From Bacilli bacterium (GTDB lineage: Bacteria > Bacillota_I > Bacilli_A > ML615J-28 > CAG-698), in the NCBI GenBank assembly GCA_045577945.1, contig JAZNJG010000197.1, positions 1-59,826 on the forward strand: a stretch of DNA of 59,826 nucleotides. The letters run 5' to 3'. Position numbers and translations under genes: made by a program. Below, in pieces: positions 4,620 to 44,372 of the stretch. A model generated the notes under the pieces. The model was given only the letters and a program-made list of their open reading frames with translations, had not been told where the DNA came from and made no database searches. The stretch's first letter is position 1, and each line of letters starts with the position of its first letter.

Positions 4620-4811
4620 ATGTTAGATTTAAAATATAAAATTGGTGATATCTTATTAGATAGTGAAACTGATAAGTTATGGGTTGTTGTGTATTATGAT
4701 GAAGAAACGAGATTGTATAATATACAAGAAATAAGTATCAACCAAGTAACCGAATCAAAATTAGATAGTATGGTGTTATTAGATGAAGAGGATTTATTAG
4801 AAAATGATTAA
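4620..4811 (+). CDS. hypothetical protein
   Basis: 63-aa ORF in a co-directional array; its end overlaps the next start (4804). Confidence 0.4.
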   Translation: MLDLKYKIGDILLDSETDKLWVVVYYDEETRLYNIQEISINQVTESKLDSMVLLDEEDLLEND

Positions 4812-5595
4812 TATAAGCCATGAAATTCCAATCTCGCTACTCGAAGAATCAAAATATATAAATGATTATGATTATTGTTTAGTTCATTTATTAGATCAAA
4901 ACGAAGATTATAAGAATTTTTATATGAATTCAGTTAAAGAAGGTCGTAAAGTTTTATTAGATAATTCATTGTTTGAGCTTGAAACATTATTTAATGGTGA
5001 TATTTTTGCAGAAAAAATTTTAGAATTAAAACCAACTGAATATATTATACCAGATAGTTTAGAGGATATTAATGAAACTATTAATTCATATAATAATTTT
5101 ATTTCTAAATATAATGATTTACCAGGTATTAAAATAGGAGTTGTTCAAGGAAAAACATTAGACGAGTTAATTGAGTGTTATAAATTTATGTCAGCTAAAA
5201 CTGATAAAATTGCTATTTCATTTGATTATAGCTTTTATGAAAATTTTTATCTTACAAATAATAAATTAACATCTTGGTGTTTAGGTCGTCAAAAATTTAT
5301 TGATTATTTAGTTGATAATAATATATGGAATAATGATAAACCACATCATTTATTAGGTTGTAGTTTATCAAAAGAATTTCTTAATAAAACATATAATAAT
5401 ATTAGTATTGAAAGTATTGATACATCAAATCCTATCGTTGCTGCAATTAAAAATTTAAAATATAATAATATATATGGTTTAGAAGAGAAACCTTCAGTTA
5501 AACTTTGTGATTTAATTGATTATAAACTTAATAAAGAACAATTAGAATTAGTTAAATATAATACAAAAATGTTTAGAAAGGCGTGTAATGGCTAG
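4804..5595 (+). CDS. putative TGT/DpdA-like (TIM-barrel) 7-deazaguanine transglycosylase
   Basis: VLLDNSLFE resembles the TGT DSGGFQ strand, HHLLGCS resembles the TGT (L/M)FG(I/V)G strand, and SIDTSNPIV resembles FDC(V)xPTR. It is translationally coupled to the downstream genes of the queF/queC island. Assignment rests on motif resemblance only. Confidence 0.4.
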   Translation: MINISHEIPISLLEESKYINDYDYCLVHLLDQNEDYKNFYMNSVKEGRKVLLDNSLFELETLFNGDIFAEKILELKPTEYIIPDSLEDINETINSYNNFISKYNDLPGIKIGVVQGKTLDELIECYKFMSAKTDKIAISFDYSFYENFYLTNNKLTSWCLGRQKFIDYLVDNNIWNNDKPHHLLGCSLSKEFLNKTYNNISIESIDTSNPIVAAIKNLKYNNIYGLEEKPSVKLCDLIDYKLNKEQLELVKYNTKMFRKACNG

Positions 5596-6139
5596 TAAAT
5601 GGATATGTTTCTTTTCACAAACAGGTAGTGAAATTGCAAATATTGTTAATAAATTAAAAATTACACCTGATTTAATAATTACAAATAGAGAGAATTTAGA
5701 AGGTGTAAATTCTTATATTTTAAATAATTTAAAAGATAGAATTGTATATCTACCTTCTAAACCTATATTAAATGATTATGATAGATTAGTTAATCAGTAT
5801 AAGGATATATTTAATGATTCTATAATAACCTTACATGGGTTTTTAAGAATTATTCCAGGTGAGATTTGTAATAGTTATAATATATATAATTTACACCCAG
5901 GTTTGATTACAAAATATCCTGAATTAAAAGGATTTAACCCGCAAGAAAAAGCTTTTAAATTAAAATTAAAAACAAGCGGTTCAGTTATACATAAAGTTAT
6001 TGCCGAAGTTGATTCTGGAGAAATTCTTGATAGTGTTGAAATAGGTATTGATAATTTAACTTTAGATCAAGTATACCAAGAACTACACAATATATCAACT
6101 GAATTATGGGTTAAATTTCTAACTAAAGAATTCAAGTAA
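5588..6139 (+). CDS. PurN-like formyltransferase
   Basis: Collinear with GAR transformylase: FFSQTGSEIANI (ISGNGSNLQAI), LHGFLRII (LAGFMRIL), YNLHPGLITKYPELKG (LNIHPSLLPKYPGL), GSVIHKVIAEVDSGEIL (GTSVHFVTDELDGGPVI). The catalytic N-x-H and Asp are retained. Confidence 0.7.
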   Translation: MASKWICFFSQTGSEIANIVNKLKITPDLIITNRENLEGVNSYILNNLKDRIVYLPSKPILNDYDRLVNQYKDIFNDSIITLHGFLRIIPGEICNSYNIYNLHPGLITKYPELKGFNPQEKAFKLKLKTSGSVIHKVIAEVDSGEILDSVEIGIDNLTLDQVYQELHNISTELWVKFLTKEFK

Positions 6140-7359
6140 TGTCGGTTATTTTAAGAAATATTACAGATAGAAATACTATTTTAAATTTAATGAATATTAG
6201 TGATAATAACATTGATTTTAAATGTATTAGTGTTCGTGAAGATCGTAAAATAGTATCATATATAATTTATCACTATACAGATAATAAAACTATTATTGAT
6301 TACCTGTATACAGATGAACAATATCGTAACAAGGGGTATGCATTAAAATTAATCAATAGATTAGAAATTGAATCAAATAATAATATATTTATAGCATACA
6401 CAAATAAAAACACTGATCATTTCTTTGCAAAATATTTTGAAAAAGATTCAGTTAATAATTGTTTTATATTAAATAGAGTTAAAGTTGATTTACACATACA
6501 CCTTGGACAGGTTCCAAGTACAAGAAAAACCACATCAAAAGAATTTGATATACAAACTGATCAAGTTAAATCATATATACAAAATTCAAATATAACTCAT
6601 GCTTGTATACTATATACTAATTATGAACAGTTATATGAGTTAAGTCAAGATCTACCAGGTGTAAAATTATATGGGTTACAATATTATGATATAAGCTTAT
6701 GTAATTCAGTATTAAATTTTCAAAAATTCGATTGCGATAAAGATTTATGGAAAGGTATTAAAATACATTCACACCGTAATTTTAATTCAAAAAGTATTAT
6801 AAATTACTCACAGAAAGGTTTATTGCATTCATTATTTAATAGTTTACCAGATAATAGTATTATATTACCACACTTCCAAGGATCAATCGGTAGCACGCCG
6901 TTAGATATTCAAAATAATATTATTGAATTTACAAATCATAAATTTATAATAGGTCATAGTGGTAATTATGGTCATATGGCTTATAAACCTAATATTATTG
7001 AAAATCAATACGATACAAATAAAAAGAATCTAATGCATTTACACTTAATATCATTAAATAGTGTAAACACGGCAGTTAATTTAGCTAATAACTTACCAAA
7101 TGTTTATCTCGATTCATCTATATTTGTAACTCATAAAAATATTATATTTAATGATTGTGTTAATAGTGGGTTTGGTAGCGATTTTCCATTAGGTGTAATG
7201 AAGAATAAATTATTACAAAATCAAGAAATTTTGTATTGTAATTCTTTTAGTAAGAATATACATTTAAACACAATACATTTAAATACAGTTAAATTTCTAA
7301 ATTCTTCAATTGAAGAGCGAATGAAAAAATTTTTTAAGGAGAACAAAAAACAATGTTAA
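6139..7359 (+). CDS. fusion protein: N-terminal GNAT-like acyltransferase and C-terminal metal-dependent amidohydrolase-like TIM barrel
   Basis: N-terminal YTDEQYRNKGYALKLINRLE is a Q/R-x-x-G-x-A type acyl-CoA loop. The C-terminal half has VDLHIHLG (HxH), IKIHSH, IIGHSG and GSDFP. The start overlaps the previous stop. Confidence 0.45.
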   Translation: MSVILRNITDRNTILNLMNISDNNIDFKCISVREDRKIVSYIIYHYTDNKTIIDYLYTDEQYRNKGYALKLINRLEIESNNNIFIAYTNKNTDHFFAKYFEKDSVNNCFILNRVKVDLHIHLGQVPSTRKTTSKEFDIQTDQVKSYIQNSNITHACILYTNYEQLYELSQDLPGVKLYGLQYYDISLCNSVLNFQKFDCDKDLWKGIKIHSHRNFNSKSIINYSQKGLLHSLFNSLPDNSIILPHFQGSIGSTPLDIQNNIIEFTNHKFIIGHSGNYGHMAYKPNIIENQYDTNKKNLMHLHLISLNSVNTAVNLANNLPNVYLDSSIFVTHKNIIFNDCVNSGFGSDFPLGVMKNKLLQNQEILYCNSFSKNIHLNTIHLNTVKFLNSSIEERMKKFFKENKKQC

Positions 7360-7883
7360 TAAGTTTCTCAGGTGCACAATCAACAGGGAAAACTACATTG
7401 CTTAATATATTAAAGCAAGATAGTTCTTTAGAAAATTATAAATTTATTGATGAAATTACAAGAAGCATACAAAAACAAGGGTATAAAATAAATGAGTTAG
7501 GTGATAGCGAGACACAAAAATTAATAATGAAAGCACACATAGACAATTCAAATCTAACAAATGCAATATTAGATAGATGCTCGCTAGATGGTTTATGTTA
7601 TACTGAATATCTATATAATAAAGGTAATATTTCAGAAGAAGTAATGGATTTTACAAAAATAGCATTTCAAAATACAATTAATAAGTATGATTTAATATTT
7701 TATTTAAAACCAGAATTTGAAATTGTTGATGATAATGTAAGAAGTACAAATAAAGAATTTCAAAATGAAATTGTAAAACTATTTGATAAAAATATTAATC
7801 TTTATAATATAAATGTGATTCAACTAACAGGTACAATTGAAGAAAGATTAAAACAAATATATAATTATATTGAAAGGAAGTAA
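7353..7883 (+). CDS. P-loop NTPase/kinase (NadR/AAA_28-like)
   Basis: Walker A at the N-terminus, ISFSGAQSTGKTTLLN. 176 aa. Overlaps the upstream ORF by 7 nt. Confidence 0.6.
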   Translation: MLISFSGAQSTGKTTLLNILKQDSSLENYKFIDEITRSIQKQGYKINELGDSETQKLIMKAHIDNSNLTNAILDRCSLDGLCYTEYLYNKGNISEEVMDFTKIAFQNTINKYDLIFYLKPEFEIVDDNVRSTNKEFQNEIVKLFDKNINLYNINVIQLTGTIEERLKQIYNYIERK

Positions 7884-7886
7884 ATT

Positions 7887-8777
7887 ATGAGTAAAACTGA
7901 AGAAATTGCATCAACACTTTTAGGTAAGAAAGTAAGTGGTAGTGATTATTATGATCCTTCATTATTAGTCGCAGTACCTAGATATGAGAATCGTGAACAA
8001 TATAATATAGATGAAAGTAATTTACCTTTTGAAGGTTACGATATTTGGCATGCATACGAGATATCTTTTCTAACAAAAAAAGGTGTACCTGTAAACGGTG
8101 TTGCAAAGATTAAATATAATTGTAATAGTAAATATATTGTTGAATCAAAATCACTTAAACTGTATTTGAATTCGTTTAATATGACACCAATGAAAGATAC
8201 AATTGAAGAAAGTCTTAATTTCTTTCTAGAAACAGTTAGAAAAGATTTAAGTGAAAAACTTGAAACAAATGTTGAAGTTGAATTTCACGATAAACTTTCT
8301 AATGAAAAGGAATTAACATATAGTAAATATACACCGTTACAAGAATTATGTGATATGAATAGTATTACTTGTACTGAGTTTAACGAAAACCCGGATTTAT
8401 TACATGTAGTTAGAGATAAACCTTCTGAAGTACGCATAACATTTAATGGATTAAAATCAAATTGTCGCGTCACGAAACAACCGGACTTCAGTGACATAAT
8501 AATTAGATGGAAGTCAAAACACACAATTTCTTATGAAGATTTATTAAAATATATTGTATCCTTTCGCCATGAAAACCATTTCCATTGCGAAATTGTAGAA
8601 TGTATGTATAAAAGATTATGGGATAAACTAGAACAGCCTGAAGAATTATCAGTTACAGGTCTGTATACAAGAAGAGGTGGAATTTCCATCTATCCAATGA
8701 GAGCTAACAAAATTGAATTACTCGATCAAACAATGTTAGATCCAACAAAATATGTAAAAGGTACAATTAGAGATTAA
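7887..8777 (+). CDS. queF: NADPH-dependent 7-cyano-7-deazaguanine (preQ0) reductase, bimodular type
   Basis: Collinear with E. coli QueF: LLGK, PFEGYDIWHAYEISFL, ESKSLKLYLNSFN, catalytic-Cys motif LKSNCRVTKQPDFS, VSFRHENHFHCEIVE, YTRRGGISIYP. Confidence 0.88.
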   Translation: MSKTEEIASTLLGKKVSGSDYYDPSLLVAVPRYENREQYNIDESNLPFEGYDIWHAYEISFLTKKGVPVNGVAKIKYNCNSKYIVESKSLKLYLNSFNMTPMKDTIEESLNFFLETVRKDLSEKLETNVEVEFHDKLSNEKELTYSKYTPLQELCDMNSITCTEFNENPDLLHVVRDKPSEVRITFNGLKSNCRVTKQPDFSDIIIRWKSKHTISYEDLLKYIVSFRHENHFHCEIVECMYKRLWDKLEQPEELSVTGLYTRRGGISIYPMRANKIELLDQTMLDPTKYVKGTIRD

Positions 8778-8785
8778 AAGCAATA

Positions 8786-8819
8786 AAAATGGTTGAGTAT
8801 TAATACTCAACCATTTTTT
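8786..8819. terminator. hairpin between convergent queF and homing-endonuclease genes
   Basis: aaaatggttgagtat..atactcaaccatttt, flanked by an A-run and a T-run. It overlaps the last codons of the minus-strand gene. Confidence 0.5.
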
Positions 8820-9996
8820 CTCTCCAATTCTCTTGTATTATATAATTTCTAATAAAATCATGTTCCCAAATATAAATTATTTTATATCCTAAGGATTTAA
8901 TTATATCAAATCTTTTAAAGGTTTCTTCATTTAATTCGCGATATGTTTTGTAACAACTAGAATTTATCTCATCTAAATTAAAAACCTCAGGATTTCCATG
9001 CCAATAATCTCCTAAAAATTCATAAACTGTATTTGTTTCAGGATCATAGCCATCTGGTTTAAATTTTCTATTTTTATATTTTATTCTGTAATCGTATATA
9101 ATATTTGAGTTATTTAAATGATCAAAAAATATTTGCTGTGTTTTTAATATTTTATATAGATTTTGCTCTTTTATATTAAATTTTTTCTTATAAAGTAATA
9201 TACGTTCATTATGTATATTAAAATATTCTGAACATTTATCTACTAAGAATCTATTATTTTTTATGAAATTATTACGAAAGAATTGTTCATTTAAATTATT
9301 TACATGTAAAACACCTTTCATTTCAGCAAATAATAATTTATATTCTTCACTTTTCATATGGCTCGTTTCACCAAAATGTTTCAAACAAGTTTCTATTTTC
9401 TTTTTCTTTACTTCTGGATTTTGTGATGGATTTTCATAACCTGTTTTTAATTTATAGGTGTTGATTGCATTTTGTTTTAATTCTTTAACTTGCATTGGGT
9501 GTTCAACACCAAATTTTTCTATCCATTTTTCTTTAGCTAATTTCTTACCTTCTTCACCTTTGAAATAATTATCACGGCCATATTTTTCAATCATGGTTTG
9601 CTTATGTTTTCTAACCATATCTTCTTTCCAATTTGGATTATTTCTTTCTTTAGAAGATAAACATTTTTCAGACATTGTATGTTTCCAATTTGGATTTTTA
9701 TTATATTTTGTATTTAATCCTATTTTAGCGGCTAATTTTTTTGATTTAGTTATATTTAGCTTTCTAATAATATCATTAAATTTATGTAAATGTATATTTA
9801 ATATATTACTTATTTGTTGTTGAGAAAGATTTAATTCTAAATATAGATAATCAATATCCTCTTTTACTGGGTATTCAATTAATTTTAAATATTTACTACC
9901 TATATTTATTTGTTTTAATGGGAATTTTAAATAATCTCTTGATAAACGAGAAAGATCAATATTATATTTTTTATAAATATTTACAGAATCAACCAT
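8800..9996 (-). CDS. free-standing homing-endonuclease-like protein (N-terminal HTH, repeated helix modules, C-terminal Vsr/PD-(D/E)XK-like nuclease)
   Basis: The C-terminus reads FKPDGYDPETNTVYEFLGDYWHGNPEVF...YKIIYIWEHDF. The middle has repeated G..NP.Q..EVK.K modules. I prefer ATG 9996 (AAGGAG 6 nt upstream) to the ORF-track start 10038. It is the only minus-strand gene inside a + strand operon. Confidence 0.7.
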   Translation of the reverse strand: MVDSVNIYKKYNIDLSRLSRDYLKFPLKQINIGSKYLKLIEYPVKEDIDYLYLELNLSQQQISNILNIHLHKFNDIIRKLNITKSKKLAAKIGLNTKYNKNPNWKHTMSEKCLSSKERNNPNWKEDMVRKHKQTMIEKYGRDNYFKGEEGKKLAKEKWIEKFGVEHPMQVKELKQNAINTYKLKTGYENPSQNPEVKKKKIETCLKHFGETSHMKSEEYKLLFAEMKGVLHVNNLNEQFFRNNFIKNNRFLVDKCSEYFNIHNERILLYKKKFNIKEQNLYKILKTQQIFFDHLNNSNIIYDYRIKYKNRKFKPDGYDPETNTVYEFLGDYWHGNPEVFNLDEINSSCYKTYRELNEETFKRFDIIKSLGYKIIYIWEHDFIRNYIIQENWREKMVEY

Positions 9997-10025
9997 TTTG
10001 TTCTCCTTGTGAATTTGGTTGGTTT

Positions 10026-10107
10026 TAGAAAATTCCATTGATTGCCGTCTTTGGAATTTTCGTTTTATATAATTATTTATAAAAATTGTGATTCTTTATT
10101 GAAATAT
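10026..10107. repeat. intergenic repeat, copy A (10-bp inverted repeat gaaaattcca-N14-tggaattttc plus conserved AT-rich tail)
   Basis: About 80% identical over ~80 bp to 11640..11725, with identical arm sequences and loop length. Confidence 0.75.
10074..10081 (-). promoter_or_regulatory. late-promoter box (extended TATAAATAATTATATA on minus strand) facing the homing-endonuclease gene
   Basis: Plus strand 10066..10081 tatataattatttata is the reverse complement of the extended late motif found before the structural genes. Confidence 0.45.
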
Positions 10108-10160
10108 AGATATAATATTTTTATAATTAAATAAATTAAGTAAATGAAAGGTGATATAAT

Positions 10161-10883
10161 ATGAAAAGATGTATAATTAGCGCTAGCGGTGGAATGGATA
10201 GCACTGGCCTTTTGATTCATTTGTTAGCTAATGATTATAAAGTAACTATTGCTAATTTTAACTATGGTTCAGATCAAAATACAGTTGAACATCAAAGATT
10301 AAGTCAAAATCTTGAATATTTAAAATCTAAAGGTTTTGATATTGATTTGGTTGAAATGGATTTATCTCCTATTATGTCTAAATTTTACTCTTCATTAACA
10401 AGAAAAGATTTAGATACACCGGAAGGTTATTATAATGATGATAATATGAAAATTACAGTTGTCCCTAATCGTAATGCTATTTTTGCATCAATTATATATG
10501 GTTTAGCATTGTCTCAAGCAAAAGAAACAGATGATAATGTTGATATTTGTTTAGGAGTACATAGTGGTGATCATACAGTTTATCCAGACACTACTCCTGA
10601 ATTTATAAATGCAATTTATAATGCTTTTGCTGTTGGAAATTGGGATTCTGAAAAAGTAAATATCTACATGCCTTATATCAATAGTAATAAAACAGAAATA
10701 TTAAAAGATACGTATAAAAATTGTTATAATTTGAATATTGATTTTAATACTGTTATGTCCAATACATTAACTTGCTATAAACCAGATGAAAACGGACGTT
10801 CATGTGGAAGATGTGGTTCATGTACTGAAAGATTAGAAGCTTTTAATAATCTTGGTTTGAAAGATCCTGTAAAATATGAATAA
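10161..10883 (+). CDS. queC: 7-cyano-7-deazaguanine (preQ0) synthase
   Basis: PP-loop SASGGMDST, VPNRNAIF, YPDTTPEF, and C-terminal zinc cysteines TLTCYKPDENGRSCGRCGSCTERLEAF. Collinear with E. coli QueC. Confidence 0.9.
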   Translation: MKRCIISASGGMDSTGLLIHLLANDYKVTIANFNYGSDQNTVEHQRLSQNLEYLKSKGFDIDLVEMDLSPIMSKFYSSLTRKDLDTPEGYYNDDNMKITVVPNRNAIFASIIYGLALSQAKETDDNVDICLGVHSGDHTVYPDTTPEFINAIYNAFAVGNWDSEKVNIYMPYINSNKTEILKDTYKNCYNLNIDFNTVMSNTLTCYKPDENGRSCGRCGSCTERLEAFNNLGLKDPVKYE

Positions 10884-11128: not shown

Positions 11129-11596
11129 ATGTCTTGTTGTGAAAATAGAGTTCAATTAAAATTTTGGAAAGAAAGAGAAGATGCACAAATTCCAGAAGTG
11201 GCTTATGGTGGTAGTTCAGCTTGTTGGGATCTAATCGCAGTTGAAGATACCGTTATTCCAGCAAGAGGATCAGCAATTGTTGAAAACGGTTTGCGTGTAA
11301 TGATTCCTGAAGGCTGGTATTTGAAAATTTCTGATAGAAGTGGCAACGGGTTTAAAAAAGGTCTGCACTGCCACCACGGAATTTTAGATAGCTTTTACTC
11401 TGGTTCAATAGGAGTGAAATTATATAATATGACAGATCAGGATCAAATTATTCAAAAAGGTAATGGAATTTGCCAAGTTGAAACATTCAAAAAACCAAAT
11501 ATTGAAATCTGTGAAGCAACACCAGAAGAATGGGAAGAATATAGTCAAAACACAATTCGTGGTGAAAATGGTTTTGGATCATCAGATAAAAAATAA
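11129..11596 (+). CDS. dut: dUTP diphosphatase (trimeric dUTPase)
   Basis: Motifs SSACWDL, ISDRSGNG, HGILDSFYSGSIGV, and C-terminal RGENGFGSSD. Confidence 0.85.
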   Translation: MSCCENRVQLKFWKEREDAQIPEVAYGGSSACWDLIAVEDTVIPARGSAIVENGLRVMIPEGWYLKISDRSGNGFKKGLHCHHGILDSFYSGSIGVKLYNMTDQDQIIQKGNGICQVETFKKPNIEICEATPEEWEEYSQNTIRGENGFGSSDKK

Positions 11597-11725: not shown

Positions 11726-11776
11726 TAACATACATCTTAAAATTTATAAAAGAATTAATAAACGAAAGTGATAAAA

Positions 11777-13330
11777 ATGAATGATTTTGATTTCTATATT
11801 AACGTATTTCAACACAGAGATAATATACTAGTTAGCGGGTATAAAGATAGTAAAAAAGTTTATAAATCTATTGAGTTTAAGCCTATTCTATTTAGAGAAT
11901 CGAATAAAAATACAAATATTAAAAATATTAACAATAAATTTTTAGAACCTATACAGTTTGAGAGTAATAGTCATTTTTATAACTTTGTTAGACAAAATAA
12001 AGAAATATCAAATATGAAGCTTTATGGAACTGAAAATTTAAAAATGCAATGGATCTCAGATAATTTCCCAAATAATATTAAAGCTGACTATTCAAGATTT
12101 CGTAAAATTTTTATCGATATCGAAACATGCTGTGAATTAGGATTTCCAGATCCAACTATTGCACCCGAGCCAATTAATGCTATTACATATTATGATTCAC
12201 TTCTACAAAAATATTTTGTGTTAACAAATAAAGATTTTGGTTGTGTAAATATATCTGATGAAGAGTGCGTGATTATTCAATGTGAAAATGAAAGAGAATT
12301 ATTACTAAAATTTATATCAATATGGACTTCAAACTACCCTGATGTTATCACTGGTTGGAATACTGTTCTTTTTGATACACCATATATTATAAATCGAATT
12401 AAACAAGTATTAGGCGATCACTATGTAAAAAAATTATCTCCTTTTGGTGTTGTTAATAGTAGAGATGTCAAGTTTATGAACGGTACTAAAAAACAAGCAT
12501 ATGAAATAATCGGTGTTAATGAACTTGATTATCTTGATCTCTATAAGAAATTTTCATATGGAGAAAAACCGAGCTATTCACTAAAATATATAACAACTCT
12601 TGAATTAGGTGAGACAAAACTTGATCACGAAGAATTTGCTTCTATGCACTTATTCTATAAAGAAAACTATCAAAAATTTATAGAGTATAATATTCAAGAT
12701 GTTAAGTTAATTGTAAAGCTTGATGAGAAATGTAAATTTATAAATTTAGCTGCACAAATTGCCTATTTAGCAAAAATTAATTTTAAAGAATGTTATTCAC
12801 CTGTAGTAACATGGGAATCACTTATTTATAATTATTTAAAGGAAAAAAATATATATAGTGAGATTACTAGTAAAGAAGCAATTGGTGGTGGTTATACAGG
12901 TGCATTTGTTAAACAACCAATACCAGACAGATATAAGTGGATTGTATCATTTGACCTAAATAGTTTGTATCCTTCACTAATTAGACAATTCAATATATCA
13001 CCTGAAAAAATTATTTCAGATTCAGAAAGAAATAGAATATTTATTGAACTGAAATCTCAAAATGAAGAGAATTATAAAAGGATATCAACACCAGATTCAG
13101 CTATGGAAAATATAGTAACCGGTTCATTAGATACAAATTATTTCAAAGAACATAATATTAGTTTATCTGGATCAGGTTATTTATTTAAAAGAGATAGTCA
13201 GGGATTTTTACCAGCTATTATGGAATACATATACAATCAACGAAGAGCTGTTAAGAAAGAGATGTTATGGCATGAATCAAATGTTGAGAAAATAAGAGCA
13301 GAAATTCATCGACGTGGTTTGAAAATTTAA
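11777..13330 (+). CDS. gp43: family-B DNA polymerase, N-terminal part (exonuclease domain through motif A), gp43A-like
   Basis: ExoI FIDIET, ExoII-like NTVLFDTPYI, ExoIII YNIQDV, and polymerase motif A SFDLNSLYPSLI. It ends at TAA 13328..13330. ATG 11777 is preferred over GTG 11768. Confidence 0.85.
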   Translation: MNDFDFYINVFQHRDNILVSGYKDSKKVYKSIEFKPILFRESNKNTNIKNINNKFLEPIQFESNSHFYNFVRQNKEISNMKLYGTENLKMQWISDNFPNNIKADYSRFRKIFIDIETCCELGFPDPTIAPEPINAITYYDSLLQKYFVLTNKDFGCVNISDEECVIIQCENERELLLKFISIWTSNYPDVITGWNTVLFDTPYIINRIKQVLGDHYVKKLSPFGVVNSRDVKFMNGTKKQAYEIIGVNELDYLDLYKKFSYGEKPSYSLKYITTLELGETKLDHEEFASMHLFYKENYQKFIEYNIQDVKLIVKLDEKCKFINLAAQIAYLAKINFKECYSPVVTWESLIYNYLKEKNIYSEITSKEAIGGGYTGAFVKQPIPDRYKWIVSFDLNSLYPSLIRQFNISPEKIISDSERNRIFIELKSQNEENYKRISTPDSAMENIVTGSLDTNYFKEHNISLSGSGYLFKRDSQGFLPAIMEYIYNQRRAVKKEMLWHESNVEKIRAEIHRRGLKI

Positions 13331-13345
13331 ATAAAGGAGGTATAC

Positions 13346-14467
13346 GTGGAAGTTAATTTTGATGATTTATCGAGTATTAGTGATGATAACTTGATAAAAT
13401 TGTATCATGTTGAAGAAGAGAAAGGAAATGATGGTGAAATAACACAAAAGGCTTTAAAGATTCTTTTAAATAGTGGGTATGGAGCACTTGGTAATTCTTA
13501 TTTTCAATTTTTTGATTTAAGATTAGCGGATAGTATTACACGTTCAGGACAATGTGCTGTGCGATGGATGGAGAGATGGTTAAATGGTTTCTTAAATAAA
13601 TATTTTCATACTGAAAATGAAGATTATGTAATTACCATCGATACAGATAGTTTATATTTAAATCTTGAATATCTCATTAATAAAATAAAAGAGAAGCAAA
13701 CATCATTAACAGATGAAGAATGTATTAATATCTTAGATAAATTTGCACATGAAGTAGTTGAAAAACAAATTGAAAAAGGGTATGAAGAATTTTATAAGTA
13801 TTTAAATGCTTTTGAAAATCAGATGGTTATGAAAAGAGAGTGTTTATGCTCTTCAGGTGTATTTGTTGCTAAAAAAAGATATGCATTAAATGTTTTTGAT
13901 AATGAAGGTGTTCGTTATGAAAAACCAAAATTAAAAATTAAAGGATTAGATGTAGTTCGTTCATCTACACCTGACTCAATTAAAAGTGACATGAAAGAGT
14001 GTTATAAAATTATATTAGAGAAAAATGAAAGAGATTTACAAGATTATATCATTCAGGTAAAAGATAAATATAAATCACTATCTCTTGAGGAAATTAGTAT
14101 AGTTTCATCAATTAGTGATATTGATAAATTTACAACAACTGATAATTCAATACCAAAAGGTTGTCCTATGCACGTTAGAGGTTCTATTATTTATAATAAA
14201 TTAGTTAAGGAACTTAAATTAGAGCATATATATCCATTAATTAAATCAGGTGATAAAATTAAATATATATTTCTTAAGATGCCAAATCATGCATTCTCAG
14301 ATGTTATAGCTTACCATAATCATTTTCCTGAAGAATTTGATCTAATTAATTATATTGATTATGATAGAATGTTTGAAAGATCGTTTACTGGTTCTATCGA
14401 AAATATAACAACACCGATTAAATGGTCATGGGAGAAGAAGAATAGTATTGATGAATTATTTGGTTAG
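13346..14467 (+). CDS. gp43: family-B DNA polymerase, C-terminal part (motifs B and C, thumb), gp43B-like
   Basis: Motif B KILLNSGYGALGN and motif C ITIDTDSLY. The C-terminal IDELFG resembles the T4 gp43 clamp-binding tail. GTG start with AAGGAGG 5 nt upstream, in the same frame as the upstream part. Confidence 0.85.
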   Translation: MEVNFDDLSSISDDNLIKLYHVEEEKGNDGEITQKALKILLNSGYGALGNSYFQFFDLRLADSITRSGQCAVRWMERWLNGFLNKYFHTENEDYVITIDTDSLYLNLEYLINKIKEKQTSLTDEECINILDKFAHEVVEKQIEKGYEEFYKYLNAFENQMVMKRECLCSSGVFVAKKRYALNVFDNEGVRYEKPKLKIKGLDVVRSSTPDSIKSDMKECYKIILEKNERDLQDYIIQVKDKYKSLSLEEISIVSSISDIDKFTTTDNSIPKGCPMHVRGSIIYNKLVKELKLEHIYPLIKSGDKIKYIFLKMPNHAFSDVIAYHNHFPEEFDLINYIDYDRMFERSFTGSIENITTPIKWSWEKKNSIDELFG

Positions 14468-19753: not shown

Positions 19754-20644
19754 ATGAAAATTGTTGAAACAAATATAGAAATATTAACACCATTAAACGG
19801 TGATAATATACTAAAACAAATAGAGATTGCTGCACGTAATTGTTACAAATCTGAAGATAAAATTACAGAAAATAGCGATTCAGCAAAAAAGATCATTAAA
19901 ATGCTATTAGATAATCATCATGAAGCTATGATTGAATTTGGTCCAGATATTACAGTTAAGTTATATTGTGATGTTGGTGTATATAAGGACTTAACCCGCC
20001 ATAGGCACTGTAGTTTTGCTATTGAATCAACGAGATATTGTAATTACTCAAAAGATAAATTTGGGGAAGAGATTGCTTTTATTAGACCTACTAATATATG
20101 TAAGGATACTGAAGAATACAATATCTGGTATAATTGTATGTGTAATATTGAAGATTCCTATAATAAAATGGCTAAGCTGGGTTGTAAACCCGATCAGTTA
20201 AGAATGTTATTACCGCACTCAACTGCAGCAAGTGTAGTTATGAAAGCTAATATACGTGAATGGAGGCATATTCTTAAATTAAGAACTTCACAAGCAGCAC
20301 ATCCATCAGTTCAACAAGTGATGAAAAAAATTCTTTATAAATTTAAAGAATCTATTCCTCTTCTATTTGATGATATTATAACAAGTGAGGAATCAAAGTA
20401 TCTTAATTTGAAAGAAGAATTACAAAATGGTATTTTAGAAGTTCGTTTTTACAAAAAAGATGGGTCTATTAGAGTAATGAAATGTACATTAAAAAGTGAT
20501 ATACTACTAAATATACAAGATAGTTCTTATAGTATATCTAAGAAAACCTATAACCCAGAAACAATATCAGTATTTGATATTGAGAAAAATGACTGGAGAT
20601 CATTTAGAATAGATTCAATAATTGATTATGAAATAATGTATTAA
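19754..20644 (+). CDS. thyX: FAD-dependent thymidylate synthase ThyX with a ~85-aa C-terminal extension
   Basis: ThyX signature TRHRHCSFAIESTRY (RHRxxSxxxxSxR) and REWRHILKLR. The core ends near aa 210. The extension reads ILEVRFYKKDGSIRVMKCTL...NDWRSFRIDSI. Confidence 0.9.
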   Translation: MKIVETNIEILTPLNGDNILKQIEIAARNCYKSEDKITENSDSAKKIIKMLLDNHHEAMIEFGPDITVKLYCDVGVYKDLTRHRHCSFAIESTRYCNYSKDKFGEEIAFIRPTNICKDTEEYNIWYNCMCNIEDSYNKMAKLGCKPDQLRMLLPHSTAASVVMKANIREWRHILKLRTSQAAHPSVQQVMKKILYKFKESIPLLFDDIITSEESKYLNLKEELQNGILEVRFYKKDGSIRVMKCTLKSDILLNIQDSSYSISKKTYNPETISVFDIEKNDWRSFRIDSIIDYEIMY

Positions 20645-25646: not shown

Positions 25647-27062
25647 ATGAGTGATTTTATAGATATTCAACTGATGATTGAAGAAGAAAGAAAAAGACAG
25701 GAAAATGAAATCTGTTTAATTGCTTCGGAAAATTATATGTCAGAATGTGTAATGGATGCTTGTGGCACAATTTTTATCAACAAATATGCAGAAGGTTATC
25801 CTAATCGAAGATATTATGGTGGTTGCTCTGTTGTTGATAAATTAGAAGATAAAGCCAATGAATTGGCAAGAAGATTATTTAAATGTAAATGGTCAAATGT
25901 TCAACCAAATAGTGGTTGTCAAGCAAACCAAGCAGTATATATGGCATTGTTAAATCCAAATGATACAATTTTAGGTATGGGAATTAATGAAGGTGGTCAT
26001 ATTTCACACACATTACCTATTGGATTTGCAGGAACATTTTATAATAGTGTTTCATATGGTTTAGATAAAAATGGTTATTTAAACTATGATGAAATTAAAG
26101 AAAAATTATATCATTATCATCCAAGATTATTAATTGTTGGTGCAAGTGCTTATTCAAGAATTATTGATTTTGAAAGAATTAGAAGTATTGTTGATGAATA
26201 CAATAATAGAGAATCAGAAACTATTTGTGAAAAATGTAGAAATGAAAAAGATTATCCAAATGGTAAATGTGAAGATTGTGAAATAATATCAGATAGTAAT
26301 TTTGAATCAAATAGATGTTTAATTATGGTTGATATGGCTCATATTGCTGGTTTAGTTGCAACTGGATTACATCCATCACCATTACCATATGCTGATGTTG
26401 TTACTTCAACTGTTCAAAAAACATTAAGAAGTGGTAGAGGTGGTTTAATTCTTTCAAATAATGAAGAATTGGGGAAACAAATTGATAAAGCAATATTCCC
26501 AAGATTACAAGGTGGTCCATTGATGAATATGATTGCTGGTAAAGCAATTGGATTTGAAGAAGCATTACAACCATCTTTTAAACAATATCAGACACAAGTT
26601 TTAGCAAATGTTAAAGCTATGGAAAAAGTGTTTAAAGAAAGAGGTGTTAAAATGGTTTCTGGTGGTTCAGATAATCATTTAATTCTTCTTGATTTAAGAG
26701 ATAAAAACATTTCTGGCCAACAGTTAGAAAATGCTTTATCAGAAATTGGTATTGTTGTTAATAAAAATGCAGTTAAAGATGACCCAAGACCAAAATCAGA
26801 AACATCTGGCGTTAGAATTGGAACTCCTGCAATAACAACAAGAGGTGCAAGAGAAAAAGATTGTGCTTTTATTGCCCATCAAATTTGTCATATGATTGAT
26901 ATTCTAACTGGTGAATATGATTACGATGGTATTTCATTATATAAAGCAATATTCGAAAAACAATTGGAAAGAGAATTGACTGATAGAGAAGTTGCTATTG
27001 AATTGATGAAAGAAAATACAGAAAATTTCTGTCAACATCATCCAATTTATCCAAATATATAA
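25647..27062 (+). CDS. glyA: serine hydroxymethyltransferase with a ~37-aa 4-Cys insertion
   Basis: LIASENY, NKYAEGYPNRRYYGGC, MVDMAHIAGL, PLP-lysine segment TSTVQKTLRSGRGG. The insertion ICEKCRNEKDYPNGKCEDCE lies between IVDEY and CLIMVDMAH. Confidence 0.9.
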   Translation: MSDFIDIQLMIEEERKRQENEICLIASENYMSECVMDACGTIFINKYAEGYPNRRYYGGCSVVDKLEDKANELARRLFKCKWSNVQPNSGCQANQAVYMALLNPNDTILGMGINEGGHISHTLPIGFAGTFYNSVSYGLDKNGYLNYDEIKEKLYHYHPRLLIVGASAYSRIIDFERIRSIVDEYNNRESETICEKCRNEKDYPNGKCEDCEIISDSNFESNRCLIMVDMAHIAGLVATGLHPSPLPYADVVTSTVQKTLRSGRGGLILSNNEELGKQIDKAIFPRLQGGPLMNMIAGKAIGFEEALQPSFKQYQTQVLANVKAMEKVFKERGVKMVSGGSDNHLILLDLRDKNISGQQLENALSEIGIVVNKNAVKDDPRPKSETSGVRIGTPAITTRGAREKDCAFIAHQICHMIDILTGEYDYDGISLYKAIFEKQLERELTDREVAIELMKENTENFCQHHPIYPNI

Positions 27063-42500: not shown

Positions 42501-43759
42501 GAATATATTTAGTTGGTGGTGCTGTTAGAGATTCATTATTAAAAATTCAATCACATGATAAAGACTGGGTAGTTGAAGGTGCTACTATACAAGAGATGTT
42601 AGATGCTGGTTTTAAACAAGTAGGTAAAGAATTTCCAGTATTTCTACACCCAGAAACAAATGAAGAATATGCTTTAGCAAGAAAAGAAAAGAAAACAGGA
42701 GATAAGCATACTGATTTTGAATTTGATTTTTCTCCAAACGTTACATTAGAAGAAGACCTAGCTAGAAGAGATTTCACAATAAACGCATTTGTATTAGATA
42801 GTGGAGATTATATTCGAGATTATTTTCATGGTTTTGATGACTTAAAAAATAAATTAATAAGAGCAATCAGACCAGAAACATTTATTGAAGACCCACTAAG
42901 AGTGTTGAGAGGTTGTCGTTTTGCTGCTCAATTAGATTTTAATATTGAACCAAACACTATGGATTTATTTAAAAAAATGGTTAGAGATGGAATGTTATCT
43001 CATCTCACACCAGAAAGAGTATGGAAAGAAACAGAAAAAGCACTAACTAGTGGATATTCATCAGAAAAATATTTTGAATTATTAAATGAATGCGGTGCAT
43101 TAGAAACGTTGTTTCCTGAAATTTATAAATTAGTAAATACACCAGAACAAATTAAATATCACCCGTCAGGAAATACATTTAAACATACAATGATTGCATT
43201 ATCGAGAGTTAAAAATGAATCATCTTTAACTAAATTCATAGTATTATGTCATGATTTAGGTAAAGGAACGACACCTGAAAATATTTTACCACAACATATT
43301 AAACATGATGAAAGAGGAATTGAGCAAATAGATTTGTTATGTGATCGATTAAAAGTACCAAATATATTTAGAGGGTGTGCTAAAACTTTTTGTAAACACC
43401 ATATGAGAATGGCTAAATTCGATATATTGTCGATTAAAAAACAATATGATTTAGTGCAAGAACTATCATCAAACTTTAAAAATCAACAATTATTACAAAT
43501 ATATAATAAATGTTTTTATGCTGATTATAATGGGGAGGAAAAGCTAACTAAATATAATGATCCATTGATTGCAAAGAATATTATACATCAAATTAATAAT
43601 GTATTTGATATAATGGAAGGTATTACATTAAAAGACTTACCAGAAAAAATACAGAAAAATTTAATGAAGCAAAAATATGAAAAAATTGGTATTCTATATC
43701 GTGAAAATATGATAAAATATCTTAAAGAAAAATTAAAAGAAAGAGAAACTTATGAGTGA
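42497..43759 (+). CDS. cca: CCA-adding tRNA nucleotidyltransferase with HD phosphohydrolase domain
   Basis: Nearly collinear with E. coli Cca: MRIYLVGGAVRDSLL, DKDWVV, FPVFLHPETNEEYALAR, RRDFTINA, EDPLRVLR, LTPERVWKETEKAL, HPSGNTFKHT, LCHDLGKG. Confidence 0.92.
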   Translation: MRIYLVGGAVRDSLLKIQSHDKDWVVEGATIQEMLDAGFKQVGKEFPVFLHPETNEEYALARKEKKTGDKHTDFEFDFSPNVTLEEDLARRDFTINAFVLDSGDYIRDYFHGFDDLKNKLIRAIRPETFIEDPLRVLRGCRFAAQLDFNIEPNTMDLFKKMVRDGMLSHLTPERVWKETEKALTSGYSSEKYFELLNECGALETLFPEIYKLVNTPEQIKYHPSGNTFKHTMIALSRVKNESSLTKFIVLCHDLGKGTTPENILPQHIKHDERGIEQIDLLCDRLKVPNIFRGCAKTFCKHHMRMAKFDILSIKKQYDLVQELSSNFKNQQLLQIYNKCFYADYNGEEKLTKYNDPLIAKNIIHQINNVFDIMEGITLKDLPEKIQKNLMKQKYEKIGILYRENMIKYLKEKLKERETYE

Positions 43760-44372
43760 AGAAAAAGATTACTATTTAGAGCAAGTATTAGAATTTGCTT
43801 ATGAAAAACATAAAGATCAAAAAAGAAAATATACAAACGAGCCATATATTAATCACCCAATTAATGTAGCTATGATCATTGAGGAAGCGTTTTCCCATAC
43901 ACCAGAACTTTATATGTATTCTGATAAACTACCTATAAGAATCAATACTGTAATTGGTGCTTGGTTACATGATGTAGTTGAAGACACTAATACATCTTTT
44001 GTAGAAATTGAAGAAAAATTTGGTATTCATATTCGAAATATTTTATATTATGTAACTAATATTTCAAAACCAACAGATGGAAATAGAAAAATTCGTAAAA
44101 AAATTGATATGGCTCATAATCTTAAAGGTCCTGTTGAATCCATAATGATCAAATTAGCAGATATTATTGATAACTGTAATGGTATAATGAAAAGAGACTC
44201 TTCGTTCGGTAAAAAATATTTAATAGAAAAACAACAATTCTTATTGAATTTAGTTGGCCAGGGATATTATAATAATTTTAAAGAAATAGTTGATAAGCCT
44301 CTATTTGAAGTTTTAGAATATTTGTATACTAAAGCTTGGACTACTATTAAAACTGAGATTGGAGTTAATTAA
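43752..44372 (+). CDS. SpoT/Mesh1-type HD-domain small alarmone hydrolase
   Basis: FAYEKHKDQKRKYTNEPYINHPINVA, AWLHDVVEDT, FG..IRNILYYVT, and KLADIIDNCN match the (p)ppGpp-hydrolase HD domain (HP..VA, LHDvvEDT, KLADRlhN). Overlaps the cca stop by 8 nt. Confidence 0.78.
   Translation: MSEEKDYYLEQVLEFAYEKHKDQKRKYTNEPYINHPINVAMIIEEAFSHTPELYMYSDKLPIRINTVIGAWLHDVVEDTNTSFVEIEEKFGIHIRNILYYVTNISKPTDGNRKIRKKIDMAHNLKGPVESIMIKLADIIDNCNGIMKRDSSFGKKYLIEKQQFLLNLVGQGYYNNFKEIVDKPLFEVLEYLYTKAWTTIKTEIGVN

Follow-up and report, generated by a model that had tools for sequence, protein, structure and literature searches.

The 59,826-nucleotide stretch analysed here (contig JAZNJG010000197.1 of assembly GCA_045577945.1, filed under a Bacilli bacterium; hereafter the window) carries near its start a gene island that very probably replaces guanine in DNA by a 7-deazaguanine. 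The window is AT-rich (~25% GC across its length) and holds a T4-like gene set, comprising a UvsW-like helicase, a split family-B polymerase, a UvsX-type recombinase, a gp41-like helicase, gp59, gp32, RNase H and baseplate proteins; the source of the island is an uncultured T4-like phage. Between positions 4620 and 11596 the plus strand bears a tight string of genes, interrupted by a single minus-strand gene (Table 1). Five of these genes (4804–8777), encoding a DpdA3 transglycosylase, a DpdN formyltransferase, a fusion of a GNAT domain to an amidohydrolase-like domain (GNAT–AH), an AAA_28 kinase and a bimodular QueF, form an operon with translational coupling, and QueC follows beyond the opposite-strand homing endonuclease. 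An earlier note, made from the letters alone, had listed six open reading frames (ORFs) here and four overlapping junctions. All six are present, and the junctions read exactly as described at the sequence level, with ATGATTAA at 4804/4811, ATGGCTAG at 5588/5595, TAATG at 6139 and ATGTTAA at 7353/7359. With lengths of 176–406 amino acids (aa) at 25% GC and database E values down to 1e-60, the ORFs of the island lie far beyond chance.

Table 1. Genes of the 7-deazaguanine island and its edges (positions in the window)
Position	Strand	Assignment	Length (aa)	Basis or remark
4620–4811	+	small ORF	63	overlaps the DpdA3 start by 8 nt
4804–5595	+	DpdA3-subfamily transglycosylase	263	immuto/CP220 homology; phrog_19058; fold
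5588–6139	+	DpdN-like formyltransferase, PurN family	183	PF00551; immuto26A_67 homology
6139–7359	+	GNAT (residues ~1–110) plus Amidohydro_2-like domain (~110–406)	406	
7353–7883	+	AAA_28 (NadR-RNK/dNK-like) P-loop nucleoside/nucleotide kinase	176	PF13521; phrog_2107
7887–8777	+	bimodular QueF (preQ0 to preQ1, NADPH-dependent)	296	QueF_N and QueF domains
8800–10038	-	homing-endonuclease-like, DUF7487 plus REase-like C-terminus		phrog_3339, E = 1.4e-14
10161–10883	+	QueC, preQ0 (7-cyano-7-deazaguanine) synthase	240	PF06508
10876–11127	+	ORF	83	overlaps the QueC end; no Pfam match
11129–11596	+	trimeric dUTPase-fold dNTP pyrophosphatase		PF00692, 61.7 bits; phrog_135, E = 1e-36

The first gene of the operon, read in the earlier note as a TIM-barrel protein resembling tRNA-guanine transglycosylases (TGTs), clearly belongs to the DpdA3 family and has a TGT/DpdA fold, judging from its homologues and its predicted structure. 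By tblastn it is 44% identical to the DpdA of Flavobacterium phage immuto_2-6A (100% coverage, E = 3e-61), 50% identical to gp056 of the Campylobacter phage CP220 (E = 2e-54) and 29% identical to its counterpart in phage phiST (E = 5e-8), and it matches phrog_19058 (E = 1.6e-59). Neither Pfam nor NCBIfam returned a match, and a profile of the family found nothing meaningful among PDB sequences. An AlphaFold2 model built on a 50-sequence alignment (pLDDT 94, pTM 0.91) retrieved in Foldseek, as top match, the DNA preQ0 insertase DpdA (7UI4, E = 6e-7), then TGT (1Q65, E = 1.9e-6) and ArcTGT (1IQ8, E = 2e-6, TMq 0.71), with generic TIM barrels below these at E = 1e-5 or weaker. The fold whose absence the earlier note would have taken to speak for tRNA modification is thus present.

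D53 (in LLDN/LLDNS), D84 and D206 (in DTSNP) are invariant in 50 DpdA3 homologues, as is HLLG at 182–185. Judged by family conservation, the three aspartates are plausible candidates for the catalytic residues that would correspond to Asp102 and Asp280 of TGT. Like bacterial DpdA (bDpdA, 7UI4) and the TGTs, the window protein has a TIM-barrel fold and presumably exchanges the base by means of an Asp. It differs from them in sequence (~15% identity or less), in length (263 aa against 369–577 aa) and in that the CxCxxC…H zinc motif is not evident among the invariant residues of its family. The metagenomic DpdA3 family comprised 4,443 matches, and natural fusions of DpdA3 to a formyltransferase occur (for example P0021, P0052 and P0115). 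The subfamily, which includes the immuto_2-6A and CP220 proteins, was defined by Cui et al. (2023, PMC10516641).

The identities of QueF and QueC are unambiguous on their domains and motifs. QueF, which the earlier note had recognised as bimodular, contains a QueF_N (119.1 bits) and a QueF domain (71 bits), with the catalytic Cys in CRVTKQPD at residue 193, in the C-terminal module, and RRGG at 262; on TIGR03138 it scores 244.8 bits, below the equivalog cut-off of 293.45. QueC, also named in that note, matches PF06508 (141.2 bits) and scores 112.6 bits on TIGR00364, below the cut-off of 150.3. Its PP-loop SGGMDS lies at residue 9 and its Zn-type Cys cluster, CYKPDENGRSCGRCGSC, at residue 205.

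The PurN-like formyltransferase of the earlier note likewise stands. The ORF matches Formyl_trans_N (PF00551, 48.5 bits, cut-off 26.1) and is 46% identical to immuto26A_67, the DpdN prototype. The PurN triad N106/H108/D144, mapped with an E. coli PurN reference sequence, is kept in 37 of 37 homologues, the window protein included. The ORF is of the short form and overlaps the DpdA3 stop codon; Cui et al. (2023) apply the name DpdN to short forms co-encoded with DpdA and the FolE-to-QueF pathway. By analogy with the prototype, it is predicted to formylate the aminomethyl nitrogen of preQ1 or dPreQ1.

The closest precedent is immuto_2-6A, in which no dG is detectable and 100% of G is N-formyl-dPreQ1 (fdPreQ1), as established by liquid chromatography–tandem mass spectrometry with a synthetic standard (Cui et al. 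2023, PMC10516641). Its locus resembles that of the window: a small ORF overlapping the DpdA3 start is followed by DpdA3, DpdN, an AAA_28 kinase (annotated there as a thymidylate kinase) and a bimodular QueF, and QueC is encoded as well. Identities to the window proteins are 44% for DpdA3, 46% for DpdN, 36% for the kinase and 44% for QueF. There are differences too. The immuto locus has a 50-aa ORF between DpdA3 and the formyltransferase; its cluster is flanked by FolE, QueD, QueE, MazG and a phosphoribosyltransferase (PRT), none of which is in the window; and its backbone includes a family A polymerase in place of the T4-like split PolB, UvsX, gp41 and gp32. This synteny, at 36–46% identity, strongly supports the proposal of the earlier note that a formylated preQ1-type DNA base is made by a DpdA-type transglycosylase together with QueC, QueF and a formyltransferase, a product class that the window, judged on its genes, would share with immuto_2-6A. 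What does not hold is the novelty of the pathway, since the core of the island is another member of the DpdA3/DpdN class described in 2023. We consider it very likely that we are dealing with a DpdA3-type module for the modification of DNA with 7-deazaguanine, orthologous to that of immuto_2-6A, to which one rare enzyme has been added.

CP220 (a Firehammervirus) has by identity the closest DpdA3 among isolates, followed by a kinase of the same family, and like the window phage is T4-like and AT-rich. Unlike the window, its region has neither DpdN nor QueF beside DpdA3 and carries an HD–P-loop fusion upstream of it. According to Cui et al., synthesis in the Campylobacter phages stops at 7-carboxy-7-deazaguanine (CDG), and the base in CP220 DNA is 7-amido-7-deazaguanine (ADG, dADG in DNA). 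Complete replacement of G has been reported for the DpdA3 phages CP220, phiST and immuto_2-6A, as against <0.1% of G for bDpdA (PMC10516641).

The P-loop kinase of the earlier note belongs to AAA_28 (PF13521, 68.7 bits, cut-off 27; phrog_2107, E = 8e-33), with Walker A GAQSTGKT at residue 7 and DRC at 74. On the dNK model it scores 23.9 bits, below threshold. At least 90% of 76 homologues share the Walker A motif, D74-R75 and the LID arginines R130 and R165. The protein is 36% identical to immuto26A_68 and 38% to CP220 gp057. A canonical dTMP kinase was rejected (TIGR00041, 16.6 bits against a cut-off of 83). A nick-repair polynucleotide kinase (PNK) is less likely, as the protein matches AAA_28 and dNK and has no match to AAA_33, the PNK-type family.

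To what extent the kinase accompanies DpdA3 was mapped in 80 viral DpdA3 loci with homologues of the window, immuto and CP220 proteins, 78 of the loci having enough downstream sequence. In ~76 of these 78 the kinase directly follows DpdA3 or DpdN and is itself followed by QueF; in ~48 loci it stands after DpdA3 where DpdN is lacking, and in ~28 after DpdN. Loci L068 and L070, with 8 kb downstream, are the only two without a kinase or QueF nearby, and such exceptions may reveal what stands in for these genes. Clustering of the flanking ORFs in 90 loci gave DpdA3 in 90, the kinase in ~85 and QueF, following DpdA3, in 77, with no other gene comparable. Strong homologues of the kinase were confined, in 50,697 phage isolate genomes, to Campylobacter firehammerviruses and immuto phages, all of which carry DpdA3. 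Judged by this distribution, the kinase belongs to the core of DpdA3 systems, is inherited together with DpdA3 and most likely phosphorylates a nucleoside or nucleotide of the same pathway. Because it is near-universal beside DpdA3, including in immuto_2-6A (fdPreQ1) and CP220 (dADG), it is no pointer to a new base, and the hint of an undescribed base that the earlier note saw in it falls away. The word "kinase" is absent from Cui et al. (PMC10516641), and our literature searches returned no paper on a DpdA3-linked kinase or on a pre-replicative route of the kind discussed below.

The kinase family has a further trait in the CP220 group, where the window kinase hits two places by tblastn in most genomes; the second may be the HD-domain and P-loop fusion, gp055 in CP220 (L002, 7862–8893), which lies directly upstream of DpdA3.

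The gene that distinguishes the window from immuto_2-6A is the 406-aa GNAT–AH fusion between DpdN and the kinase. Its GNAT domain lies at residues 28–98 (Acetyltransf_1, 27.9 bits, cut-off 20.7), with the acyl-CoA-binding motif Q/R-x-x-G-x-G/A present as RNKGYA at residue 63, where R63, G66 and Y67 are invariant in four fusions. Foldseek matches the GNAT half to GCN5/PCAF (E = 1e-5), and PDB 3BLN is a further match (E = 1.9e-4). A model of the full protein from four sequences (AlphaFold2, pLDDT 60) was recognised by Foldseek in its GNAT half only. In the amidohydrolase superfamily the metal ligands follow the pattern HxH (strand 1), His (strand 5), His (strand 6) and Asp (strand 8). The window AH domain has HxH at 119–121, H245, H273 and GSDFP at 346; across 35 AH family members, D117, H119, H245, H273 and D348 are either invariant or conserved in at least 90%, and H121 is the consensus residue. 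All the metal ligands are invariant in the four GNAT–AH fusions, and the model supports the strand assignment in part. AH homologues score 19–24 bits on Amidohydro_2 (PF04909), short of the 26.4 cut-off, and the AH family profile matches the "predicted amidohydrolase" 3CJP (E = 1.8e-5) and, weakly, 2F6K and 2GWG. Because of the near-threshold Amidohydro_2 scores, the 3CJP match and the HxH/His/His/Asp pattern, the label "GNAT–amidohydrolase fusion" given in the earlier note probably holds at superfamily level.

The fusion is very rare. Three homologues (58–64% identity) were found in 5.8 billion proteins (5.8e9), none in the 50,697 isolate genomes and none in 80 IMG/VR DpdA3 loci, and scans of IMG/VR and JGI metagenome contigs with the fusion alignment gave nothing. 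Relatives of the AH domain amounted to 60 representatives among 1.84 billion in an exhaustive HMMER search. In four of four lineages GNAT–AH stands immediately downstream of DpdN, and in the window its gene is translationally coupled on both sides. For the AH family as a whole, each of the 10 contexts is a 7-deazaguanine cluster, and the arrangements vary. L090 has a kinase–AH fusion flanked by DpdN and QueF, and L091 an AH–formyltransferase fusion flanked by DpdA3 and the kinase. In L092 a standalone AH gene adjoins MazG–kinase–DpdA3–DpdN, and in L096 AH comes after DpdA3, DpdN, the kinase and an ORF that weakly resembles an amidoligase. AH lies downstream of QueF in L097 and next to a separate GNAT gene in L095, and L094 has another GNAT–AH fusion beside a Vut_1 fragment. 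The protein P0128 is an example of AH fused to DpdN, and P0138 of AH fused to the kinase. DpdN is present with its catalytic triad intact in all eight AH contexts long enough to judge; the idea that GNAT substitutes for an inactive DpdN was rejected on this ground.

A different arrangement is found in L028, a complete island that has no DpdN; there a standalone, translationally coupled GNAT separates DpdA3 from the kinase. This GNAT is related to the window GNAT domain (E = 3e-4, same top PHROGs), and it had no further relatives in IMG/VR. Its position in DpdN's place and its relation to the window GNAT suggest that GNAT targets the same amine as DpdN, and for L028, which lacks DpdN, an acetylated, not formylated, preQ1 base is predicted. 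The full order in L028 (4777–14930) is QueC, GATase-like, NUDIX, dUTPase, DpdA3, GNAT, kinase, HNH, QueF, FolE2, QueD, PRT, QueE.

From these contexts, GNAT–AH is predicted to be an accessory module specific to DpdN-containing clusters that edits the N-acyl state of the preQ1 side chain, and an effect of the fusion on the final base is plausible. We propose the following route. CDG would be supplied by FolE, QueD and QueE, encoded beyond the window or by the host, and would be converted to preQ0 by QueC and then to preQ1 by QueF, as their family assignments imply. Following the immuto precedent, DpdN would formylate the aminomethyl nitrogen with 10-formyl-tetrahydrofolate, and DpdA3 would swap guanine for the 7-deazaguanine; as in the three DpdA3 phages with 100% replacement, most or all virion G would be replaced. 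By that same precedent, G in virion DNA would be an N-acylated preQ1. If context is a guide, AH may then remove the formyl group of f(d)PreQ1 and GNAT re-acylate the freed amine from acyl-CoA; absent such editing, the final base would be fdPreQ1. That editing of this kind yields 7-(acetylamino)methyl-7-deazaguanine, possibly mixed with fdPreQ1, is a tentative proposal which we think rather unlikely to be right. There is a parallel in the lipid A Ara4N pathway, in which the PurN-type formyltransferase of ArnA makes a transient N-formyl intermediate and the metal-dependent hydrolase ArnD later removes the formyl group. The proposed pairing of DpdN with AH mirrors this by analogy only, as AH and ArnD show no homology and their substrates are unrelated.

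Several observations weigh against this route, or against parts of it. FolE, QueD and QueE, noted as missing from the start, have no homologues in the window by homologue searches and Pfam scans of 20 further ORFs, and the same searches found no homologues of MazG, PRT, Vut_1 or the HD–AAA protein. The C-terminal AH half is poorly modelled (overall pLDDT 60), and the window AH domain alone gave no significant match in Pfam or PHROGs. Most Amidohydro_2 members that have been characterised act as decarboxylases, lactonases or hydratases, not as deformylases, and in L090, L091 and L092, where AH occurs with DpdN and without GNAT, a pure deformylase would look futile. The closest long relative, L008, whose DpdA3 and QueF are 80% and 89% identical to those of the window and whose flanking backbone is alike, has its kinase 53 bp after DpdN and no GNAT–AH gene; since the backbones match, the fusion is accessory and dispensable and could be peripheral. 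A modified base is not readable from sequence, and the chemistry given here is a prediction. In the prototype work, too, the activities of DpdN and DpdA3 were predicted and never reconstituted (PMC10516641).

It is quite possible, given the dispensability of the fusion, that the island yields plain fdPreQ1 in the end, like that of immuto_2-6A, and that GNAT–AH has an auxiliary role in the supply or regeneration of the formyl donor, in the detoxification or salvage of by-products, or in dealing with released guanine. L008 keeps every other component without GNAT–AH, DpdN is catalytically intact wherever AH occurs, the AH–DpdN fusion P0128 would also fit donor supply, and the serine hydroxymethyltransferase (SHMT) and thymidylate synthase ThyX encoded in the window indicate that folate one-carbon flux is already manipulated. 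Formyl-donor supply, however, leaves unexplained both the recurrent pairing of AH with GNAT, fused or adjacent, and the substitution of GNAT for DpdN in L028, and the same slot also holds other candidate side-chain enzymes, namely an OCD/mu-crystallin enzyme (L076) and a weak amidoligase match (L096). We regard it as improbable that GNAT–AH is an unrelated moron lodged in the operon, such as an anti-defence enzyme or a toxin-like acetyltransferase. In favour of this reading, the gene is accessory and the region is a hot-spot for insertions such as homing endonucleases, but all ten AH-family contexts are in 7-deazaguanine clusters, AH has been fused independently to DpdN and to the kinase, and GNAT–AH is coupled to its neighbours on either side. 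Less probable still is that the genes serve tRNA queuosine, boosting or hijacking the host's Q-tRNA, rather than DNA. QueC and QueF are indeed enzymes of the queuosine pathway, and DNA modification is here predicted from the genes; yet the transglycosylase falls in the DpdA3 subfamily, known from phages whose DNA is fully modified, in fold it most resembles a DNA insertase, the formyltransferase and kinase are coupled to it, and no tRNA genes were found in the window.

A further alternative concerns mechanism only and is compatible with the gene roles assigned above: the same genes would make the same base before replication, with dGTP degraded to dGMP by a phage pyrophosphatase, guanine swapped for preQ1 or fpreQ1 by DpdA3 on the deoxynucleotide, the product phosphorylated by the AAA_28 kinase, and the triphosphate incorporated by the phage polymerase. 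Pre-replicative base replacement is known from T4 (gp56/gp42/gp1) and S-2L (MazZ/PurZ/DatZ), systems that, like the DpdA3 clusters, combine a dNTP pyrophosphatase, a base-modifying enzyme and a dedicated nucleotide kinase with complete replacement of a base; unlike them, the DpdA3 clusters have a base-changing enzyme with a TGT fold, whose substrate is at present taken to be DNA. Of all the partners of DpdA3, a nucleoside/nucleotide-type kinase is the best conserved, and it is present even in CP220, which makes dADG without QueF. DpdA3 clusters also contain enzymes that act on dNTPs and the nucleotide pool: MazG (immuto_63, L092), HD proteins (CP220 gp055, L092), thymidine kinase (L003), a PF18909 dATP/dGTP diphosphohydrolase (L089), NUDIX and dUTPase (L028), GMP reductase (L063, L003) and PRT (immuto_60 and ~10 loci). 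DpdA3 is moreover a minimal barrel of 263 aa. Replacement reaches 100% in DpdA3 phages as against ≤30% for other DpdA subfamilies, modification of DNA by DpdA3 in E. coli was not achieved, and ADG nucleoside was found in the cytoplasm of CP220-infected cells (PMC10516641). The pool enzymes, the complete replacement and the failure in E. coli make this a serious rival, which we nevertheless hold to be somewhat doubtful. The best structural match of DpdA3 is a DNA-acting insertase, every characterised TGT/DpdA enzyme acts on polynucleotides, the kinase and PRT could recycle released guanine to GTP for FolE, the pyrophosphatases in DpdA3 clusters are putative as to substrate specificity, and the window has just a dUTPase nearby and a distant HD protein. 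Cui et al. themselves read DpdA3 as post-replicative (PMC10516641).

Returning to the module as a DpdA3-type system with an added side-chain editor, the GNAT–AH gene is the sole basis for the prospect, in itself a doubtful one, of an undescribed base. We speculate that GNAT–AH phages carry an undescribed 7-deazaguanine in their DNA, the top candidate being 7-(acetylamino)methyl-7-deazaguanine (nucleoside [M+H]+ ~338.15), and that the kinase and the dGTP-pool enzymes may mean pre-replicative synthesis; taken together, this is rather unlikely. If true, the slot from DpdA3/DpdN to the kinase would be a diversification hot-spot, holding a formyltransferase, GNAT, AH, an amidoligase-like and an OCD-like enzyme, and pre-replicative building of the nucleotide would upset the present view that 7-deazaguanine DNA arises after replication. 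Few known systems replace a canonical base fully; 7-deazaguanine DNA is one of them and defeats restriction enzymes, and it bears on phage therapy, sequencing artefacts and synthetic biology. The literature searched covers neither the kinase–DpdA3 linkage nor the GNAT-paired AH family. The kinase is linked to DpdA3 as tightly as QueF is, and its linkage bears on how DpdA3 phages reach 100% replacement and why reconstitution in E. coli failed. The AH-like family is small, previously unannotated, often paired with GNAT and specific to DpdN clusters, and is thus a candidate for new chemistry on the preQ1 side chain; the window and L008 offer a natural pair for comparison with and without GNAT–AH.

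The slot beside the kinase holds further genes at other loci. The PF18909 enzyme lies at 9580–9945 in L089, GMP reductase/IMPDH-like genes at 9375–10340 in L063 and 5551–6615 in L003, and the ornithine cyclodeaminase (OCD)/mu-crystallin enzyme at 9395–10321 in L076. A ~115-aa ORF recurs between DpdN and the kinase (10340–10684 in L063, 9345–9701 in L065, and in L069, L076, L077, L081 and L083); it bears the motif KKQFDYGPGNISLGS…RLNDKLQRL, matches phrog_1485, has no Pfam match and may be an all-alpha NTP pyrophosphatase. In L096 (9421–11553) QueC is interrupted by an intein (PF14890), and the DpdA3/DpdN/kinase/AH cluster there is flanked by ribonucleotide reductase genes.

At the edges of the island, the 63-aa ORF has no Pfam match. 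ORFs of 61–67 aa occupy the equivalent position in the relatives L004 and L008 and in immuto_2-6A (immuto26A_64), and no sequence similarity between the window ORF and immuto26A_64 was detected. L004 also has an 83-aa ORF where the window has one after QueC. The dUTPase is possibly associated with the island, given the placement of such genes in or near the DpdA3 cluster in L003 and L028; the order in L003 is QueF–dUTPase–kinase. The homing-endonuclease-like gene, which the earlier note does not mention, is an insertion between QueF and QueC and stands outside the pathway. Nearby sites in relatives (L008, L028, L073–75) carry different DUF7487, HNH or GIY-YIG genes, which marks the island as a hot-spot for selfish endonucleases.

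Elsewhere in the window, an HD-domain phosphohydrolase (43752–44372; HD_4/HD; phrog_990, E = 4e-30) lies among late genes and could be a dNTPase relevant to the exclusion of dGTP. The SHMT (25647–27062, 471 aa; PF00464, E = 2e-133, the match split in two stretches) could be a source of one-carbon units both for ThyX and, by way of host FolD, for the formyl donor that DpdN uses. ThyX, a flavin-dependent thymidylate synthase (19754–20644), is fused to a C-terminal WYL_2 Sm-like domain, an unusual combination. The family-B DNA polymerase is encoded by two genes (11768–13330 and 13346–14467) in the same frame, separated by a TAA stop that is followed by a strong ribosome-binding site, AAGGAGG, and a GTG start; in L008 the polymerase gene is uninterrupted and encodes at least 933 aa.

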